From the sequence record PQ480333.1: a stretch of 64,000 bases of DNA, one strand, 5' to 3'. Below, piece after piece: positions 13,110-45,960 of this stretch. The notes beneath the pieces are model-generated. The model saw only the letters and a program-made list of their open reading frames with translations. It was not told the origin of the DNA and searched no databases. Position 1 is the first letter of the stretch; the number at the start of each line of letters is the position of its first letter. This DNA is from Escherichia phage NRG-P0074. The translations under genes and the position numbers were made by a program.

Positions 13110-13874
13110 TTAATTCATAAACCCATCGTCAAATGGTGAATTTTGTCTACCACGGTTGTTAACTACTACGTACGGTTCAACGTATTCACTTGCCTCTGAA
13201 TTGATTTGCTCAACTTCAGAATATTCATCGATATTAATGTCATGGATACCGTCAAGATTTCTAACAGGGTTAAGTTCCAAGTCACTAAATTCAGGTATAT
13301 TGATACCTTCATTTTTCTGAAGCACCGGATTGATTTCTTCGCCAGAGTAAATAAACTTGCCTGCAGTAATTTTACGAATCGCATTTTTACCTACTTGATA
13401 GAATGGGTCATATGGTTCAACCCAGTTAATCTCAAACAAACTGTTATCCATTGGGAAGTATATTAAATCACCTTCCTTGGGCTCCTGATTGTTGACCTGG
13501 TGTTTGAAAAGACCCGGGTTAATAGATAATGTAACTTCGTCTTGAACTTGCATTCCGAAGTTGCTGAAGAACGATTTCGCTCCTTCATAACCTTCAAAAG
13601 AGTTCAGATATGCAGCAAATTTCCATGCTTTAGTAAATTTATTTTTAAGGTCCTCACCAAAGATAAGGTCCACGGCAACATATTCACGTGGAACATAAAA
13701 ACATTCAATACCGCGCATCTGTATGCTTTCTGCTACTAACACATCAGCTAGGGTTTGACTATTTTCGTATTTGTTGAAGTTCACGTATTTGTTTAAAATC
13801 TCGGTTTCATTAGTTTTAGAATAGCCACCACGATTTTCTAGTTTGGCGAAAAGATTTTTATCATAAGTTGCCAT
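13110..13874 (-). CDS. 14: Neck protein gp14
   Basis: 254 aa, T4 synteny. Confidence 0.8.
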
Positions 13875-33283: not shown

Positions 33284-33969
<686 letters not shown>

Positions 33970-33982
33970 TTTTCACAAAACA

Positions 33983-34018
33983 GTTTACATAAGGATGATG
34001 GTGTGATACTATCATCCT
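33983..34018 (+). promoter_or_regulatory. Early promoter with flanking inverted repeat (PeSL-like) upstream of first internal-protein gene
   Basis: gtttac -35; arms aggatgat / atcatcct bracket gatactat. Confidence 0.5.
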
Positions 34019-34046
34019 ATCAAATAAACAACCTCAAGGAAATAAA

Positions 34047-34334
34047 ATGAAATCCTATAAAGAATTTATATCACCTGTTGCTAACGTTTCTACTCTGACC
34101 GAAGCAACCCTTACTTCTGAAGTTATTAAAGCAAATAAAGGACGTGAGGGTAAACCAATGATTAGTCTGGTTGACGGCGAAGAAGTAAAAGGTACTGTTT
34201 ACTTAGGGGATGGATGGTCTGCTAAGAAAGATGGCGCTACTATTGTTATCTCTCCGGCTGAAGAGACTGCACTGTTTAAAGCTAAGCATATTTCTGTAGC
34301 TCAGCTTAAAATTATTGCAAAAACTCTTCTGTAA
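34047..34334 (+). CDS. Internal protein (Ip) with capsid targeting sequence; positional equivalent of T4 ipI
   Basis: N-terminus MKSYKEFIS... resembles the T4 internal-protein targeting sequence MKTYQEFIAE; 95 aa; located just after 57B. Confidence 0.65.
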   Translation: MKSYKEFISPVANVSTLTEATLTSEVIKANKGREGKPMISLVDGEEVKGTVYLGDGWSAKKDGATIVISPAEETALFKAKHISVAQLKIIAKTLL

Positions 34335-34337
34335 GTA

Positions 34338-34375
34338 GTTTACATGCTGATAGGACTATGTTATAGTAGTCCTAT
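34338..34375 (+). promoter_or_regulatory. PeSL-like early promoter cassette (copy A of ataggactatgttatagtagtcctat)
   Basis: gtttac then 9-bp arms ataggacta / tagtcctat around the -10. Confidence 0.5.
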
Positions 34376-34395
34376 CAAATTAAATGGAGTCCACA

Positions 34396-34635
34396 ATGAT
34401 TTATTACGAAAGTATCGGAACTAAAGTGGTTGCTAAAACCATTACTCGTGAAAAGTTTGCAAAGATATTCGATATGCGTTATAAAAAATCTGAACACAAA
34501 GGCATCCGATTCGAAGATGCGCACTGTACAATTTGCCCTTATAATGAAGACATAAACGGTACAATCGTTCCATTGGTAGAAGCTTCACATGATGACCTCT
34601 GGGATGAATATAATATCGCATGTCGTGAAATTTAA
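34396..34635 (+). CDS. Hypothetical protein (79 aa)
   Basis: ORF with GGAG ribosome-binding site; start taken at the second ATG (MIYYES...). Confidence 0.45.
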   Translation: MIYYESIGTKVVAKTITREKFAKIFDMRYKKSEHKGIRFEDAHCTICPYNEDINGTIVPLVEASHDDLWDEYNIACREI

Positions 34636-34663
34636 GTTAATGAATTAATCCGAGGAAAATATT

Positions 34664-35620
34664 ATGATGTTAGTTATTGGTTCTCGTGCACTTCACTATC
34701 ATGGTCTTATTGATTCTAGCGCTATCAAAAATAGCGATTGGGACTTTATTGCGGACCAAGGTTCTTGGAATGCATTCAAAAATCAAATGATGGGTGTATA
34801 TGTTCACCAAGATAACCCTGATGTTCAAGTTTTCAAATGCTTACATAATGGATGCGAAACTCATTTTGAAGCATATATTGTTCCGGCAATCACTAATGTC
34901 CGTGAATTAGTCGGTGAACTCACTCCTGAAGATTTCACGTCTTCTTATGACCTTTTAAAATACGCCAAGAAAAATTTGACTAAAGACTGTTTGAACGGGT
35001 TTTACTGGGCAACTCCTGAGATATGTCTTGCAATTAAGATGTCTCATCGTTTCAAGAAAAATAATCCATTCTTTTTAAAGACTATGAACCATATTCAGTA
35101 TCTTCGTGGTAAAGGTGTTACACTGAACGATGAACTTACTGAAATTATGCTGAAACGCCAGAAAGAAACCTTGAACTATGCTCACCCGGTTCTTGACACT
35201 TCTAAAAGTGCGTTCTTTAAAGATGACATCTATACATATGACCACGATACTATTCATGAAGCCATTGCACTAACAGACCGTCCAGCTTATACATTTTACA
35301 TGAAAGATGGTTCTGAAGTCATGACCTCACGTGAGAAGTTCGAATCATTACCAGAAATGGTCAAATTGGCTGGTGTATACGAAGAATCATGTGTACTAGC
35401 ATTAGAACGTTCTCAAATTCCTAATGACTTTAAAATTAACCCTGAAGCCAGTTTCATGATGGCATTAGAAAAAGTCTGCACAAGCATCACCTCCGGTTGG
35501 TTCCGTGAATACGCCTGGGAAAACTACAGCAAAGTAGTAAGTATGTACCAAAGCTTAGGACATGACGATTACGTCAAACGTTTCAAACAAAATTTCCATA
35601 TGGTAAAACCTTTCAAATAA
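34664..35620 (+). CDS. Hypothetical protein (318 aa), weak nucleotidyltransferase-like N-terminal motif
   Basis: IGSRALHYHGLIDSSAIKNSDWDF resembles a GS...DxD motif but spacing is atypical; function not established. Confidence 0.5.
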   Translation: MMLVIGSRALHYHGLIDSSAIKNSDWDFIADQGSWNAFKNQMMGVYVHQDNPDVQVFKCLHNGCETHFEAYIVPAITNVRELVGELTPEDFTSSYDLLKYAKKNLTKDCLNGFYWATPEICLAIKMSHRFKKNNPFFLKTMNHIQYLRGKGVTLNDELTEIMLKRQKETLNYAHPVLDTSKSAFFKDDIYTYDHDTIHEAIALTDRPAYTFYMKDGSEVMTSREKFESLPEMVKLAGVYEESCVLALERSQIPNDFKINPEASFMMALEKVCTSITSGWFREYAWENYSKVVSMYQSLGHDDYVKRFKQNFHMVKPFK

Positions 35621-35632
35621 TTTCGCAAAACT

Positions 35633-35670
35633 GTTTACACAATTATAGGACTATGTTACAGTAGTCCTAT
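35633..35670 (+). promoter_or_regulatory. PeSL-like early promoter cassette (copy B, ataggactatgttacagtagtcctat)
   Basis: Near-identical to the copy at 34350. Confidence 0.5.
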
Positions 35671-35690
35671 TAAAACATGAGGAGAATATT

Positions 35691-35996
35691 ATGAAATTAG
35701 GCGAAACCAACCGAATTGGTCTTTTAACAATATTTGCATCACTTTTTTACGCAGCTCTTTCTGTTGCAGTATTACAAAAGGCTTACAGTATGGATGGTGT
35801 TCCTGGTTTTGTATTCTTATCACCATTTTTGCTATTCGTTGGAGCTTTGTTATTATATGCCACGACTAGTTTCGACCATAATGTCTGGGTCAATTATAAA
35901 CGTAAATTGTCCGAAGAAGAACACGCAGAAGCTCGTAAAAAAGCTATTGAATCTACCAATCTAGAAAATTTCATTAAAGAATGTCGAGGAAAATAA
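35691..35996 (+). CDS. Small membrane protein (101 aa, two predicted transmembrane helices)
   Basis: Hydrophobic segments LLTIFASLFYAALSVAVL and FVFLSPFLLFVGALLLYA. Confidence 0.5.
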   Translation: MKLGETNRIGLLTIFASLFYAALSVAVLQKAYSMDGVPGFVFLSPFLLFVGALLLYATTSFDHNVWVNYKRKLSEEEHAEARKKAIESTNLENFIKECRGK

Positions 35997-35997
35997 T

Positions 35998-36684
35998 ATG
36001 AATAGTTCTAAAGTGTTTAATAGTCAAGCTCGTGCAGTAGGTGGTTTTGCTCATGCGATTAAAAACGACCAGATTAAAAACGAGCCTATGTTCTTTAACT
36101 GCGATTTGAATTTTGCTTTTGATAATGGCGGCCCAATTACTCGTAGCTTTATCCAAAATCTTCCTGACGATTGGAAAGACTCGGATGTAGTATTTGATTC
36201 ACGAGTTCACATGCTGATGCCTGGTTGGTACCCTGCTATTCCTGGATATCACCATGACGATGTTCCACGCCCTGATATTCCAACAGGACAACATTTTATT
36301 ACTGCAGGACAACCTGACTATGACAACCCTCGTTACCATTCTGAACATATTCTTGGTCTTGTTAACGCTGATGTGTGTCCTACTCATTTTGCAACAGGAA
36401 CTGCAGAGTTCAGTCAGATTCCTGATGGCGAACTTATCTATCGCCAGTGGCACAAAGAAGTCCTAGAAAAAATCGAAAAAGGCGAACTAGAGAAATGGGA
36501 AGCTCCAGATCGTACTCTTCTTCAGTTTGATTGGCAAACATGGCACACTGGTTCTCGTGCAATTAGTAACGGATGGCGTTGGTTCGGACGTGTATCTCGT
36601 AATACAGACCGAGTTAAAAAGATTACCAATGAAATTCGTGTCAATGCCCAAGTTTATCTGGAATTCCCTATGGAAGGTTGGTAA
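35998..36684 (+). CDS. Hypothetical protein (228 aa), His/Asp-rich
   Basis: ORF with ribosome-binding site AGGAAAA; no confident family. Confidence 0.5.
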   Translation: MNSSKVFNSQARAVGGFAHAIKNDQIKNEPMFFNCDLNFAFDNGGPITRSFIQNLPDDWKDSDVVFDSRVHMLMPGWYPAIPGYHHDDVPRPDIPTGQHFITAGQPDYDNPRYHSEHILGLVNADVCPTHFATGTAEFSQIPDGELIYRQWHKEVLEKIEKGELEKWEAPDRTLLQFDWQTWHTGSRAISNGWRWFGRVSRNTDRVKKITNEIRVNAQVYLEFPMEGW

Positions 36685-37175
36685 TGATTAACAAAACATA
36701 TTGGTCTAATATAGACGATGGCGACGAAGGTATTTCGTATTATTCGGTAGATTGGACAGGATGTCCATCCTACTTAGTGAAACATATTTGCCAAGAATTT
36801 AAAATCGACCAGCCAGCAGGTATTATCGTGAACAGATACATTAATGGATATCAACCTATCGATGAAGTAATACGAACAACTCAAGCTGAGCTTGAAAAGT
36901 TTTTCAATAAGTGCCAATGGATAACAGGATGGATTATATTTGTACCGTCAGTATGGTTTTTTAGTACTAAAGTAAGTGCCTTTGCTATACTAGATATTAT
37001 CGCTATCTTATTAGCATCTACTATCGTAAGTATTATTGGTGGTATTATTGGTGGAGGTACTGTAGGCATCATTATTAATCTTGTTAAAAGTAGTTTACAA
37101 GAACATAAAGACAAGATAAAAGCCAAGAATAATGAAGTTGAACGTTTTATTACCGAATGCAGGAATTTGAGATGA
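36684..37175 (+). CDS. Membrane protein (163 aa)
   Basis: ATG start overlapping previous stop; C-terminal hydrophobic and glycine-rich segment (IIGGIIGGGTVGIIINLV). Confidence 0.5.
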   Translation: MINKTYWSNIDDGDEGISYYSVDWTGCPSYLVKHICQEFKIDQPAGIIVNRYINGYQPIDEVIRTTQAELEKFFNKCQWITGWIIFVPSVWFFSTKVSAFAILDIIAILLASTIVSIIGGIIGGGTVGIIINLVKSSLQEHKDKIKAKNNEVERFITECRNLR

Positions 37176-37408
37176 GTATAGCAATTTACATTAAATCAGA
37201 ATCATGTGATAGTTATCTGTACACATACGATAAAGATGTGTCAGAAGAAAAAATCAAAGACGATCTTAATATGGACCTTGATATGTTCTGTCCTATTGCA
37301 GATTACAAACTTGCGGTCTCTAATAGTGAAAGTCCATCTAAAGAAACGCGCATCGAAGAATTTATGTCCGAATTAATGGCCAAATCATGGGGCCGAGATG
37401 ATGAGTAA
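37172..37408 (+). CDS. Hypothetical protein (78 aa)
   Basis: ATGA overlap with preceding gene; ribosome-binding site AGGAAT. Confidence 0.4.
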   Translation: MSIAIYIKSESCDSYLYTYDKDVSEEKIKDDLNMDLDMFCPIADYKLAVSNSESPSKETRIEEFMSELMAKSWGRDDE

Positions 37409-37856
37409 GAAAAATAAAGTGAAAGAACTATCAGCCGGTATTATTTTCCTTACCGAAGATAAAGAATTATTCATGGGGCGTGTAACTGGTTCTCGTCCTA
37501 AAGGTTCTTTAGCTCATCGGTGGGATATTCCTAAAGGCCGTGTCGAACCTGGCGAATCTCCTATTGAAGCCGCTATTCGTGAATGCGAAGAAGAAACTGG
37601 GTTTACACAATATGACCCTGCCTTCCTGAAAGACCTAGGTGAACATCATTACTCAGACAATAAGAATATTCATCTGTTCTTATATACCATCCCTGTAGAG
37701 CACGAGCAATTCAGAAATAGTGTTTGTAATTCCTATCATACATTCCCAGACGGACGTCAGATTCCTGAATTTGATGCATTCGCTTTAATTAAACCTTCTC
37801 AATGGGAATATGTAATGGGCAAATCATTATATAAGGTGCTCACTACCCTCCTATAA
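37398..37856 (+). CDS. nudE: Nudix hydrolase
   Basis: Nudix box GRVEPGESPIEAAIRECEEETG; lies immediately upstream of lysozyme as in T4. Confidence 0.85.
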   Translation: MMSKKNKVKELSAGIIFLTEDKELFMGRVTGSRPKGSLAHRWDIPKGRVEPGESPIEAAIRECEEETGFTQYDPAFLKDLGEHHYSDNKNIHLFLYTIPVEHEQFRNSVCNSYHTFPDGRQIPEFDAFALIKPSQWEYVMGKSLYKVLTTLL

Positions 37857-37864
37857 GTAATAAA

Positions 37865-37888
37865 TACCTCCTATAAACGTGGGAGGTA
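37865..37888 (+). promoter_or_regulatory. Hairpin sequestering the ribosome-binding site of gene e
   Basis: tacctcc ... gggaggta inverted repeat; the right arm is the GGGAGG ribosome-binding site; the same arrangement is documented for T4 gene e. Confidence 0.6.
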
Positions 37889-37890
37889 TT

Positions 37891-38379
37891 ATGAATATAT
37901 TTGAAATGCTTCGTAATGACGAAGGTCTTAGACTGACTTTATACAAAGACACTGAAGGCTTTTGGACGATTGGCATAGGCCATTTAGTAACAAAGAACCC
38001 GTCTTTAGCCGTAGCTAAAGCTGAACTTGACAGAATGATCGGACGTAAATGCAACGGTACAATTACCCTTGATGAGGCTGAAAAGCTATTTAATGAAGAC
38101 GTTGATAAAGCCGTTCGCGGAATCTTGGGTAATGCTAAACTTAAACCGGTATATGATTCTTTAGATGCAGTTCGTCGGTGTGCATTGGTCAATATGGTCT
38201 TCCAAATGGGTGTAGCAGGAGTCGCCGGTTTTACTAATTCTCTTCGTATGCTTCAACAGAAACGTTGGGATGAAGCGGCAGTAAATCTAGCCCAATCTAA
38301 ATGGTATCGTCAGACACCTAATCGCGCGAAACGCGTAATCTCAACATTTAAAACAGGAACTTGGAAAGCGTATATATGA
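37891..38379 (+). CDS. e: Endolysin (T4 lysozyme)
   Basis: [32 protein letters not shown]... near-identical to T4 lysozyme. Confidence 0.97.
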
Positions 38380-38657
38380 AAACATATAGTGAATTTTTAT
38401 CAGAATCTATTCTTAACGAAGCTACTGACACATTTGCAACTAAGCTAGGTGCAGCTTTGGTTGAAGCTGAAAGTCTATTAGCACGTATTTCTGAACTTGC
38501 TAGTAAGATAGATACTCGCAAATTTGAACGTACCAGCGATATCGCTAAGCTTGAAGCTTTGTTACGTATGTGCGATAAACCGGAAGAAATCGCTAAGAAC
38601 GGCTCGTTAATGAAACAACGTCTTGAAAAATATATTTCAGGCGCTTCAGAAAAATAG
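38376..38657 (+). CDS. Internal protein (Ip) with capsid targeting sequence
   Basis: ATG overlaps the e stop (ATGA); N-terminus [16 protein letters not shown]... Confidence 0.6.
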
Positions 38658-38711
38658 TGTTTACTTCCTCCAAGGACTTTGATACTATACATTCATCAAC
38701 TACTTGGAGGA
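38658..38711 (+). promoter_or_regulatory. Early promoter with inverted repeat whose right arm contains the denV ribosome-binding site
   Basis: gtttac; arms ttcctccaag / cttggaggaa. Confidence 0.45.
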
Positions 38712-38715
38712 AATT

Positions 38716-39129
38716 ATGACTCGTATCAATTTAACACTTGTTTCTGAACTGTCCGACCAACATCTTATGGCTGAGTATCGTGAATTACCACGCGTATTTG
38801 GTGCAGTCCGTAAACATGTTCAAAACGGTAAACGTGTAAAGGATTTTAAAATCTCTCCAACATTTATCTTAGGCACAGGTCACGTAACATTCTTTTACGA
38901 CAAACTCGAATTTTTACGTTTACGTCAAATCGAGCTAATCGCTGAATGTTTGAAACGTGGTTTCAAAATCAAGGACACGACAGTCCAGGATATTTCCGAC
39001 ATCCCTGCCGAATTTCGTAATAATTATGTCCCGTCCGAAGCGTCCATTGCGATAAGTCAAGCACGCTTAGATGAAAAAATTGCTCAACGTCCGACTTGGT
39101 ACAAATACTATGGTAAATCAATTTACTAA
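38716..39129 (+). CDS. denV: Endonuclease V (pyrimidine dimer DNA glycosylase)
   Basis: [35 protein letters not shown]... near-identical to T4 DenV. Confidence 0.95.
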
Positions 39130-39135
39130 GGAAAA

Positions 39136-39396
39136 ATGAAAATGTATCAAGAATTTATCATTGAAGCAGATGCCAAAGGTCCTAAATTTAAAGTTAAAGC
39201 TTTCATTGGTGATGCGGAAGACTTTGGCTCATTAAAACGTAATGGGTATTCTTTCTTAGGTGGCGATGGTAAAGAAATCAACACCTATGCAAAACGTAGT
39301 GAAATTGCTTATGTTGTAGCAAGTCCTAAAGTAGATGTTGACGATATTGGATATGATTTTAACAACTTCGGAATTATTTCTGGCGGTAAAGCTTAA
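39136..39396 (+). CDS. Internal protein (Ip) with capsid targeting sequence
   Basis: N-terminus MKMYQEFIIEA; 86 aa. Confidence 0.6.
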   Translation: MKMYQEFIIEADAKGPKFKVKAFIGDAEDFGSLKRNGYSFLGGDGKEINTYAKRSEIAYVVASPKVDVDDIGYDFNNFGIISGGKA

Positions 39397-39399
39397 ATT

Positions 39400-39429
39400 G
39401 TTTACGCTTAAGTATTAATATGGTATAAT
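39400..39429 (+). promoter_or_regulatory. Early promoter (GTTTAC, TGgTATAAT)
   Basis: gtttac at 39400-39405, extended -10 tggtataat. Confidence 0.5.
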
Positions 39430-39459
39430 TACTCTATCAAAACAAACAAGGAAACAAAA

Positions 39460-39777
39460 ATGAAAACGTATAAAGAATTTATTGCAGAATCCGCCAACCA
39501 ACGCGTTGAAGGTGGTTATATTTGGATTGAACAAGTTGAGCCACCGAGCCGCACTTCTACAGGTAAATGGAAAATTACTGTTGACGGTCCTGGTGGTAAA
39601 CGTAGGACTCTTAAAGAAATTAATGGGTACTATGAAGAAGCTCTTTCGGATGCAGGAACTTACATGATGCAAATCATGATTAAAAACCCTGAAAACCGTT
39701 TTGCAGCTAAAGTCTTCCGTCGTATTGGTAATAAACTTTATGATGCATACTCTAAAAACTTCCCTAAAGAATAACAT
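39460..39777 (+). CDS. Internal protein (Ip) with capsid targeting sequence
   Basis: N-terminus MKTYKEFIAES; 105 aa. Confidence 0.65.
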
Positions 39778-39799
39778 AAATTAAAACAATAGGAACAAA

Positions 39800-40129
39800 A
39801 TGAAAACATATCAGGAGTTTATCACTGAAGTTACATTATCTGCGGAACAGAAAGCTGCTATCGAAGAAGGTAAAAATCCCAAAGTAACATACAAAGTAAA
39901 TAGTAAAGGCGTTTTTGATGGCTTGGTTCAAGACCCTGAATTGAAAAAAGCTCTTTCTAAAACTAATGCGTACTTTGCTCCTAAATTTAACACAGCCGGT
40001 GTACTTATTGGATTGGATGTATTCAACTCTAAAGGTGTTCTATCTAATGCCTTTGGTTATGCCGCTAACAAAATTACCAAAGCCGCATGGGAATCCAATA
40101 CCAAACAAGCTCAAAAGCCTAGAGTATAA
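39800..40129 (+). CDS. Internal protein (Ip) with capsid targeting sequence
   Basis: N-terminus MKTYQEFITEV; 109 aa. Confidence 0.65.
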   Translation: MKTYQEFITEVTLSAEQKAAIEEGKNPKVTYKVNSKGVFDGLVQDPELKKALSKTNAYFAPKFNTAGVLIGLDVFNSKGVLSNAFGYAANKITKAAWESNTKQAQKPRV

Positions 40130-40302
40130 TTCTTGCCTAATAAAGGGAAACGCAACCTCTCCTCATGAACGTCGAGTCCTCTGAGTGATGTACCTTTTCC
40201 AACCTGTAATAAGGTCGAGCGCAATGCGGTAATGGGTTTACATAGCGAGTCGAAGGACCTAACATGTGCCACGGAATGGCCCCAACCTAAAAGAGAAACT
40301 AA

Positions 40303-45696: not shown

Positions 45697-45903
45697 ATGC
45701 TTTACGATTATACTGGAAAATCTGAAGACGGTGTACTTGAACTTTTACCTGAAAGCGCTGAAGATGATGATATGGTGGCGATGTTTTGTAAAAATGGCCC
45801 TGGGGATAAGGGATGGATTTATCTTCGTCAAGAAAATGACTTAATTGTTTTGGACCCTAAACAAGTTGAAGAACTTTATCAACATTTAAAACACAATCGG
45901 TAG
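45697..45903 (+). CDS. Hypothetical acidic protein (68 aa)
   Basis: ATG 45697 with ribosome-binding site GTGAGGA. Confidence 0.4.
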   Translation: MLYDYTGKSEDGVLELLPESAEDDDMVAMFCKNGPGDKGWIYLRQENDLIVLDPKQVEELYQHLKHNR

Positions 45904-45941
45904 TTTACAACTTGGTAGGACTATGTTATAGTAGTCCTACC
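45903..45941 (+). promoter_or_regulatory. PeSL-like early promoter cassette (copy C, ggtaggactatgttatagtagtcctacc)
   Basis: Near-identical to the cassettes at 34350 and 35645. Confidence 0.5.
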
Positions 45942-45960
45942 AAAACAAATGGAGAACAAA

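Follow-up and report, generated by a model that had tools for sequence, protein, structure and literature searches.

A tRNA-bearing segment of RB69-type phages is missing between ipI and nudE of Escherichia phage NRG-P0074, probably through recombination between promoter/stem-loop cassettes

Gene content of the ipI–nudE interval

At 96–98% nucleotide identity, the DNA analysed from Escherichia phage NRG-P0074 (PQ480333.1) is that of a Mosigvirus (RB69-like T4-type coliphage). One 64-kb stretch (hereafter, the window) was covered; the genome measures about 162 kb, so that about 100 kb of it lie outside the window. The genes and cassettes given below as coordinate ranges are on the + strand. Between the ipI stop codon and the nudE start codon there are 3.06 kb occupied by six ORFs, whereas the same interval measures 6.1 kb in T4 and about 10.3 kb in RB69. 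The initial annotation had described a short interval of about 3 kb filled with protein ORFs, which these lengths bear out, and the ORFs that it listed (79, 318, 101, 228, 163, and 78 aa) match our inventory.

The left flank contains a 57B homologue of 151 aa (33514..33969) that is collinear with RB69 57B; in relatives, a 57B product of identical length has a Pfam Acb1 match. The last gene ahead of the junction described below encodes an ipI-type internal head protein/nuclease inhibitor of 95 aa (34047..34334; Pfam IPI_T4, E = 1.3e-50; phrog_4363, ‘internal virion protein’). It matches the T4 IPI profile PF11634 over its entire length (positions 1–76 of 76) and has an N-terminal capsid-targeting sequence (MKSYKEFI...), which together place it in the T4 IPI nuclease-inhibitor family. 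Within the interval, the first ORF is an uncharacterised 79-aa homologue of RB69ORF135c (34396..34635; phrog_3723, E = 7e-37), and the second is a 318-aa homologue of RB69ORF134c (34664..35620) with a predicted N-terminal minimal Pol-beta-type nucleotidyltransferase domain and a helical C-terminal domain. These are followed by a small membrane protein of 101 aa homologous to RB69ORF133c (35691..35996; phrog_9798, E = 4e-67), in whose translation two hydrophobic segments are visible, and by a 228-aa homologue of RB69ORF132c (35998..36684; phrog_1843), probably an Fe(II)/2-oxoglutarate dioxygenase-like enzyme. The last two ORFs are a 163-aa membrane protein homologous to e.2 (36684..37175; RB69 annotation; phrog_2203, E = 6e-56) and an uncharacterised 78-aa homologue of RB69ORF130c (37172..37408; RB69 annotation; phrog_2900, E = 9e-37). 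The right boundary is formed by the Nudix hydrolase gene nudE (37398..37856; Pfam NUDIX, E = 2e-16; phrog_1185).

These ORFs had been taken as novel in the initial annotation, a description that does not hold: they are RB69ORF135c to RB69ORF130c including e.2, known conserved hypotheticals that all fall into existing PHROG or Pfam DUF families. More than 130 phage records carry RB69ORF135c, 134c, 133c, 132c, e.2, and 130c beside nudE, and the region 34337–37900 is 96–98% identical to mogra, JM17, F27, and RB69, with at least 80% of it covered in 134 records. This genus thus ordinarily carries the six ORFs, as conserved genes, next to nudE. Compared to T4 (NC_000866), the boundaries show the same gene order (1, 57A, 57B, ipI ... 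e.2, nudE, e), whereas the interval content differs: the T4 interval holds eight tRNAs, segB, rnaC/rnaD, and e.3–e.8, all of which are absent from the interval of the window, and T4 has no annotated homologues of ORF135c–132c or ORF130c, all of which the window contains. Of the e.2–e.8 series, which the initial annotation had considered absent, e.3–e.6 and e.8 are indeed missing, but e.2 is present as the 163-aa membrane ORF, based on the RB69 annotation and a BLASTP match to T4 e.2 (E = 6e-11, 42% identity over 45 aa).

Absence of a segment carried by relatives

The window is collinear with positions 64.7–135.2 kb of mogra apart from a single shift of the offset by 6.7 kb, which falls precisely on the ipI/ORF135c junction. 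At this position RB69, APCEc01, mogra, and 308Ecol101PP carry an additional 6.8–7.2 kb, which encode 16–19 ORFs, a tRNA(CAU), and a tRNA-Arg(UCU); the genes include trna.4, trna.3, trna.2, e.8, frd.3, e.6, e.5, e.4, e.3, and several RB69-type ORFans. An identical 79-aa protein is encoded by at least 24 public contigs, and a homologue of ORF136c lies upstream of it in 10 out of 10 places shown. In all relatives inspected but two, the six ORFs adjoin nudE and the tRNA-bearing segment lies further upstream; the exceptions are E. coli O157 typing phage 6, without ORF135c and ORF134c, and one gut-metagenome contig without the 228-aa gene. A partial loss was found in AV114, which has kept the tRNA(CAU) alone. 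What actually sets the window apart from its relatives is the deletion, specific to this strain, of some 7 kb of this upstream segment.

The coexistence of both elements in relatives contradicts the initial proposal that the ORFs replace the tRNA cluster. On that proposal, the short interval would be native to a separate lineage whose tRNA cluster gave way to novel genes for host interaction, while other phages gained the island; this would fit the six ORFs being functionally uncharacterised and, save e.2, without annotated T4 counterparts. We consider this highly improbable, given that RB69, mogra, APCEc01, 308Ecol101PP, and most contigs inspected carry the six ORFs as well as the tRNA island, and that the flanks are 96–99% identical to island-bearing phages. 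The island is ancestral, moreover, because its trna.4...e.3 order is common to T4. Because of the same coexistence, we also rejected the idea that the six ORFs make up a defence or anti-defence island that displaced the tRNAs by insertion.

We also searched for the segment elsewhere in the window. The APCEc01 segment gave no match to the rest of the window except copies of a repeat of about 50 bp, and its relocation within the 64 kb was rejected on this basis. It is very unlikely that the segment was excised as a mini-circle and re-integrated at a repeat copy beyond the window, so that the tRNAs persist. Such excision with possible re-insertion has been proposed for PeSL (promoter-early stem-loop) cassettes (PMC2839356), and about 100 kb of the genome lies outside the window; however, the 64 kb show no trace of the segment, even at the third repeat copy at 45903, and none of the relatives inspected (RB69, APCEc01, mogra, 308Ecol101PP) has the island at another place. 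Also, at 160,570 bp, the genome of O157 typing phage 6 falls about 8 kb short of the 168,733 bp of typing phage 3, which fits net loss.

tRNA content

No tRNA or tmRNA was found by ARAGORN throughout the 64-kb window, and Rfam searches of the whole window at gathering thresholds gave zero matches, in agreement with the earlier reading that the interval is free of tRNAs. When the Rfam threshold was relaxed to E ≤ 1 over 33900–37900, two chance-level matches were the only result. The negative ARAGORN result is informative because the same run recovered both expected tRNAs in relatives. The entire RB69 genome has only two tRNA genes (PMC2993671, Table 2), both of which fall inside the segment absent from the window. 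To judge from the 64 kb scanned, the phage would have lost all of its tRNAs and is likely to be wholly dependent on those of the host. Other T4-like phages that lack tRNAs have been described (RB49, phi1, and JSE; PMC2993671, Table 2).

The so-called tRNA-Met(CAU) of relatives is identical to T4 tRNA-Ile at 73 of 74 positions. The codons of the lost tRNAs are accordingly AUA and AGA, with frequencies of 12.0 and 7.9 per 1000 in the ORFs of the window. Use of both codons in these ORFs probably exceeds that typical of E. coli. Because the lost tRNAs read codons that the window ORFs use, the strain provides a ready-made tool for testing the contribution of phage tRNAs.

A chimeric cassette at the deletion junction

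Where the two flanks meet, we found a chimeric PeSL-like cassette of about 42 bp (34338..34379), identified by promoter score, hairpin, repeat count, and three-way alignment. Homology of the left flank (98–99% nucleotide identity to F2, 308Ecol101PP, and APCEc01) extends up to 34390, and homology of the right flank begins at 34337, such that the overlap between them corresponds to the cassette. Its −35 box (TTTACA, 34339–34344) and −10 box (TATAGT, 34362–34367, preceded by TG) are separated by 17 nt and match at 10 of 12 positions, the best promoter-like site within 33–39 kb. A 12-bp stem (34348–34359/34366–34377) gives a hairpin of −17.8 kcal/mol (z = −3.19), which none of 200 shuffled sequences equalled, and which is not followed by a T-run. 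Downstream of the stem (3′ side) there is a Shine-Dalgarno sequence (GGAG, 34386–34389) and then the ATG of ORF135c at 34396. The window contains three cassette copies (0 expected), including one upstream of ORF133c (35633..35674) and one at 45903, and the relatives scanned have 3–4 copies in each stretch of 12–50 kb. The other copies likewise precede GGAG or GAGG and an ATG, and copies border the deletion in the window, the deletion in typing phage 6, and an indel of a 66-aa ORF.

The three-way alignment showed that the left part of the cassette corresponds to the copy downstream of ipI in relatives and the right part to their copy in the ORF136c/ORF135c intergenic space. Judged against the 308Ecol101PP copies (positions 1871 and 8926 of its stretch), the bases diagnostic of the left copy end with A34355 (GGA vs GGG) and those diagnostic of the right copy begin with T34381 (CAAATT vs CAAATC). 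The parental copies have five mismatches within 42 bp, and their longest perfect identity is 25 bp, which defines the crossover interval (34356..34380).

Taken together, we consider it likely that NRG-P0074 is a Mosigvirus with a derived deletion of the tRNA island in the hyperplastic ipI–nudE region (about 7 kb; 6.8–7.2 kb depending on the reference) that arose by recombination between two cassette copies. The substrates would be the direct copies just downstream of ipI and in the ORF136c/ORF135c intergenic space, and homologous recombination within the 25-bp identical core would leave one chimeric cassette, in which the −35 side derives from the ipI copy and the side with the Shine-Dalgarno sequence and ATG from the ORF135c copy. 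Such a cassette retains both sides, so that ORF135c and the genes after it would keep an intact early promoter. The segment may have left as a PeSL mini-circle or through an unequal exchange, and the phage would have remained viable with an enlarged terminal redundancy. An identical core of 25 bp is short, yet it falls inside the range of <50 bp reported for recombination in T4-type phages (cited in PMC2839356).

The junction has no match elsewhere: its exact pattern gave zero matches in IMG/VR, GTDB genomes, and JGI metagenomes, and among 50,697 phage records searched with a junction sequence of 1.7 kb and with a 57B+ORF135c chimera, none spans it. The deletion event therefore rests on one sequence. 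This lack of a counterpart in any other public record searched, together with the position of the junction exactly in a repeat, could point to an assembly or consensus artefact, in which two cassette copies were joined and 7 kb dropped, or to a mixed lysate in which some of the phages carried the deletion. We regard either as unlikely. The perfect repeat is just 25 bp, shorter than usual reads and k-mers, which argues against repeat collapse, and 7 kb of unique sequence would normally persist as a separate contig. In addition, typing phage 6, an independent genome, has the same type of junction at other cassette copies, showing that such deletions do occur.

Comparison with known deletions in T4-type phages

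The cassette resembles the PeSL cassettes described by Arbiol et al. (2010, PMC2839356) and Comeau et al. (2014, PMC4122927): a repeated unit of about 40–50 bp with a sigma70-like early promoter, a stem-loop, and a Shine-Dalgarno sequence with ATG. The features that can be read from sequence are present (early promoter, stable stem-loop, Shine-Dalgarno sequence with start codon, and clustered copies at indel borders), whereas terminator activity and mini-circle formation are properties addressed by transcript mapping and inverse PCR (PMC2839356), and the promoter of the window (TTTACA-N17-TATAGT) fits the T4/PST-type PeSL consensus (TTTACW-N17-TAYWAT; PMC4122927). As in the window, PeSL copies are concentrated in a hyperplastic region. 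In T4-type phages they give rise to deletions and insertions and to the excision of mini-circles (PMC2839356); a crossover inside the cassette removes the ORFs that separate two copies, and a single chimera of the two remains, the same pattern as observed here. The published examples involve 1–4 ORFans, whereas the lost block of the window is about 7 kb with 16–19 ORFs and two tRNAs. The cassette stem of the window overlaps the spacer and the −10 box, which may depart from the published layout. The deletion adds a further case to a process already described: for RB69-type phages, it is a clean natural example, resolved to the base, of how cassettes mediate the deletion of modules. To our knowledge, PeSLs have not been described for RB69-type phages.

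An independent, overlapping deletion in the same hyperplastic region was found in another Mosigvirus, E. coli O157 typing phage 6 (KP869104.1, 160.6 kb). There, too, the junction is chimeric, but it was formed from two other copies of the cassette, and both endpoints differ from those of the window: the left one lies after an 87-aa ip ORF, and the right one lies before ORF133c, at the copy corresponding to 35633..35674. Because of these different endpoints, typing phage 6 also lacks ORF135c and the 318-aa nucleotidyltransferase, both of which the window keeps. No tRNA was found in the 18-kb locus examined in this phage, and its deletion is not discussed in the O157 typing-phage paper (PMC4429339). 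As a second independent case, typing phage 6 indicates that the tRNA island of 7–8 kb is dispensable and has been lost recurrently.

Spontaneous viable deletions of similar size (6.5–10 kb), which remove the tRNA cluster, have been described between direct repeats in the T4-family Serratia phages CHI14, CBH8, and X20 (Chen et al. 2017, PMC5449768). Their content (a tRNA cluster and 13–19 small ORFs) resembles that of the deletion in the window. In contrast, the Serratia deletions occurred at repeats of 5–10 bp and were selected experimentally as escapes from ToxIN abortive infection, whereas there is no known selection for NRG-P0074. With ToxIN as a model for island loss as abortive-infection escape, it could be speculated that the island was lost to escape a host defence that senses an island-encoded factor. 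A separate speculation is that the retained 318-aa and 228-aa proteins form an RNA/tRNA modification or counter-defence module. We consider these readings unlikely.

Two widespread proteins in the interval

The 318-aa and 228-aa proteins are widespread, with homologues in 2212 and 1293 protein clusters, respectively, and we flag both for functional study as a MenT-like nucleotidyltransferase and a putative dioxygenase. The nucleotidyltransferase-like GS...DxD signature previously seen in the 318-aa protein is upheld by the invariance of its catalytic residues: the hG[GS]...[DE]h[DE]h...h[DE]h pattern is present, with G6, S7, D25, D27, and E69 unchanged in 29 sequences down to 46% identity. The protein also tests positive for the nucleotidyltransferase fold, and based on the predicted fold it is a putative MenT-like nucleotidyltransferase. 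Compared to minimal nucleotidyltransferases of the MenT/AbiEii and ANT types, it shows no sequence-level family membership, has its own helical C-terminal domain of 190 aa, and is phage-encoded with no antitoxin-like partner identified. Consistent with this difference, Pfam at E ≤ 0.1 matched DUF7277/DUF7275 only and not the MenT/AbiEii (DUF1814) family profile, PADLOC gave no match, and a profile search against PDB sequences recovered no nucleotidyltransferase.

The 228-aa protein shares 69–89% identity across phages of Aeromonas, Serratia, Klebsiella, and Erwinia, with invariant H85, D87, H183, R194, and R198, a candidate HxD/E...H iron-binding triad plus 2OG-binding basic residue. Its AF2 model has a pLDDT of 88.7. 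In Foldseek against the PDB, the top 43 matches were all Fe/2OG or related non-haem iron oxygenases, although these matches were weak (E about 7e-4 to 6e-3, TM 0.3–0.43), so that a double-stranded beta-helix fold of the PhyH-like type is putative. Pfam gave no match, the PDB profile search and PADLOC gave nothing useful, and ‘phytanoyl-CoA dioxygenase family’ appears as the name of one UniRef cluster. This protein is probably an Fe/2OG dioxygenase, as a putative assignment. In a distant Aeromonas phage, the genes for both proteins are separated by no more than about 1 kb and lie about 4 kb from RNA ligase 1.

Content of the interval between ipI and nudE

As the initial annotation described, six protein-coding ORFs lie between the ipI-type gene (34047-34334, 95 aa; Pfam IPI_T4, E = 1.3e-50) and nudE (37398-37856; NUDIX match), which the e lysozyme gene follows. 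The ORF list gives products of 79 aa (34396-34635), 318 aa (34664-35620; Pfam DUF7277 and DUF7275), 101 aa (35691-35996), 228 aa (35998-36684), 163 aa (36684-37175; a membrane protein), and 78 aa (37172-37408). The reported lack of tRNA genes in the interval also held and extends to the full 64-kb window, in which ARAGORN identified no tRNA or tmRNA; this negative is meaningful because the expected tRNAs were retrieved in relatives. No Rfam family was found in the window at gathering thresholds, and the two matches at E ≤ 1 within 33900-37900 were both at chance level.

These ORFs are neither new genes nor substitutes for a tRNA cluster. In the RB69 record they correspond to RB69ORF135c, 134c, 133c, 132c, e.2, and RB69ORF130c, directly upstream of nudE and e, and their order is identical in mogra, APCEc01, and 308Ecol101PP. 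Each belongs to an existing PHROG. Because the 163-aa protein is a homologue of T4 e.2 (BLASTP, E = 6e-11), this gene, previously taken to be absent, is present in the window.

A tRNA island is missing from a window collinear with Mosigvirus genomes

Using region 34000-37900 as a megablast query against 50,697 phage records, we found 487 matching records (134 with at least 80% query coverage), the best being the Mosigvirus phages mogra, JM17, F27, and RB69 (96-98% identity). The window is collinear with 64.7-135.2 kb of mogra, starting among genes for capsid, tail, and baseplate proteins and continuing via gene 1, 57A, 57B, and ipI to nrdD, gene 55, and beyond. The alignment has a few small indels and a single 6.7-kb offset jump, which falls precisely in the gap separating ipI from the 79-aa ORF.

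At this position RB69 encodes trna.4, trna.3, trna.2, ORF151c, tRNA(CAU), tRNA-Arg(UCU), ORF150c-148c, and e.8, followed by ORF146c, ORF145c, frd.3, e.6, e.5, e.4, e.3, and ORF139c-136c. APCEc01, mogra, and 308Ecol101PP contain the same island with small differences, such that all four phages have both the island and the six ORFs. The order from trna.4 to e.3 in T4 parallels that of the RB69-type island, and it is extremely improbable that the short interval represents the ancestral state. The APCEc01 island segment did not match anywhere in the 64-kb window apart from repeats of ~50 bp, which argues against relocation of the island; a move to a site outside the window is very unlikely.

The whole RB69 genome contains only two tRNA genes (PMC2993671, Table 2), both inside the island. 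The annotated tRNA-Met(CAU) of APCEc01 (L004:3542-3615) is identical to T4 tRNA-Ile (L018:6461-6534) at 73 of 74 positions; judged by this sequence identity, the Mosigvirus gene is almost certainly an AUA-reading tRNA-Ile that is misnamed in many records, and the island would therefore supply tRNAs that decode AUA and AGA. In the window's long ORFs, the two codons have frequencies of 12.0 and 7.9 per 1000, respectively. If the genome outside the window resembles its relatives, the phage would depend on host tRNA-Ile2 and tRNA-Arg(UCU) to read them. Among T4-like phages, RB49, phi1, and JSE are already known to lack tRNAs (PMC2993671).

The junction is a chimera of two cassette copies

Homology to island-bearing phages ends at 34390 on the left side and begins at 34337 on the right; the two stretches overlap in a repeated cassette, GTTTACA-N4-GATAGGACTATGTTATAGTAGTCCTATCAAA. 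Relatives have one copy directly after ipI and another between ORF136c and ORF135c, forming direct repeats 6.8-7.2 kb apart. We compared the single junction copy in the window with both 308Ecol101PP copies (L017:1871 and L017:8926) and the RB69 right copy. Left-copy diagnostic bases (...CATGCTGATAGGA) continue until 34355, a 25-bp core (34356-34380) is the same in both parental copies, and right-copy bases (TTAAATGGAGTCCACAATG...) are found from 34381 on. From its base pattern, we interpret the junction as the trace left when two direct repeats underwent homologous exchange.

The cassette contains the best sigma70-like site within 33-39 kb (TTTACA, 17 nt, TATAGT, preceded by TG; 10/12 matches), which a 12-bp hairpin overlaps (-17.8 kcal/mol, z = -3.2); after these come GGAG and the next gene's ATG. 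Three copies were found in the window, at 34338, 35633, and 45903 (none expected by chance), and 3-4 in each relative scanned; the third copy (45903-45944, 2 mismatches) is located downstream of the tk region and precedes a small ORF there. In its sequence features the element matches the PeSL cassettes of RB49/phi1 and T4/PST (T4/PST consensus TTTACW-N17-TAYWAT), its terminator and circle roles being putative. PeSL cassettes are concentrated in hyperplastic regions, and crossovers in the stretch from their -10 box to the ATG give rise to deletions, insertions, and the excision of mini-circles (PMC2839356, PMC4122927).

The island was most likely deleted through recombination between two cassette copies. 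This could have occurred by intramolecular excision or by unequal exchange between concatemer copies, leaving a predicted functional chimeric early promoter ahead of ORF135c. T4-type phages use headful packaging, through which the loss would be tolerated by a longer terminal redundancy.

Island loss is strain-specific and recurrent

A 1.7-kb query spanning the junction was not covered to 80% or more by any record, 57B was within about 0.8 kb of ORF135c in none of 224 matching records, and the exact junction was not matched in IMG/VR, GTDB genomes, or JGI metagenomes. An ORF136c homologue lies upstream of the identical 79-aa protein in all ten contigs among the matches listed. The junction is therefore common to no public sequence in the collections searched; that it reflects an assembly artefact or a mixed population is unlikely.

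Comparable losses were found elsewhere. In E. coli O157 typing phage 6 (KP869104.1, 160,570 bp), the order is 57B, ipI, an 87-aa ip ORF, ORF133c, ORF132c, e.2, ORF130c, and nudE, and ARAGORN found no tRNA in this 18-kb locus. Its junction is chimeric as well, joining the cassette copy that follows the 87-aa ORF to the one preceding ORF133c, the latter corresponding to the window's second copy. This deletion (L019:9398-10380, ~8 kb) is independent of that in the window but affects the same hyperplastic region, and it also removed ORF135c and the 318-aa nucleotidyltransferase gene; it goes unmentioned in the paper on the typing phages. In AV114 (OR352944.1, L005:2555-6001), the island is reduced to ~3.4 kb without frd.3 and e.3-e.6, and tRNA(CAU) alone is kept, tRNA-Arg(UCU) having been lost. 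T4-family Serratia phages undergo spontaneous, viable, ToxIN-selected deletions of 6.5-10 kb in which the tRNA cluster is lost together with 13-19 ORFs (PMC5449768). Loss of this kind is recurrent, and the feature studied here adds one more case to a known process: the Mosigvirus tRNA island, which adjoins known conserved hypothetical genes, was deleted in this strain, most likely by way of the cassette. The phage is chiefly of use as a naturally occurring deletion strain, presumed to be tRNA-less.

Two putative enzymes and other local variation

The locus also points to two uncharacterised, putative phage enzymes. Homologue clusters in the protein collection numbered 2212 for the 318-aa protein and 1293 for the 228-aa protein, from phages of Escherichia, Klebsiella, Serratia, Yersinia, Aeromonas, and Pseudomonas. 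The 228-aa protein is highly conserved, sharing 69-89% identity between phage genera, with invariant H85, D87, H183, R194, and R198. The top 43 PDB fold matches of its structure model (pLDDT 88.7) were all Fe(II)/2OG or related non-haem iron oxygenases with weak scores (E about 7e-4, TM 0.3-0.43); it is probably Fe(II)/2OG oxygenase-like. In an Aeromonas-phage-like contig (ERZ27313663, L020:5001-7714), a nucleotidyltransferase homologue (45% identity) and a 228-aa gene are ~1 kb apart, ~4 kb downstream of RNA ligase 1, which suggests that their linkage is conserved in distant T4-like phages; it is absent in Pseudomonas phage PspYZU05.

APCEc01-type phages have an extra 66-aa ORF (L004:10150-10413), bounded by the cassette, between the 318-aa and 101-aa genes; it is missing at window 35621-35690, and the indel adjoins the second cassette copy. 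In a gut metagenome contig (ERR248260 k127_343210, L014:7601-7724), the 228-aa gene is absent along with the 5' portion of e.2, a further indel within the six-ORF block.

Elsewhere, mogra_108, a 636-bp 'putative endonuclease' gene between neck genes, is absent from the window at about 13840-13864, probably a homing endonuclease presence/absence polymorphism. The ~930 bp at 911-1845 had no megablast match to the equivalent 274-bp mogra stretch near the gp24 vertex-protein gene and is therefore an insertion or replacement relative to mogra. A run of small ORFs at 38361-40129 has MKTY(Q/K)EFI-type N-termini resembling the capsid-targeting sequences found on internal head proteins; mogra collinearity is interrupted at 39482-40263, and the ip gene set therefore differs among close relatives. 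The equal-length product of the 57B homologue (33514-33969, 151 aa) in relatives is assigned to Pfam PF23474 Acb1 (anti-CBASS 2H phosphoesterase family), and 'RNA ligase' or 'cyclic phosphodiesterase' labels persist in some records.
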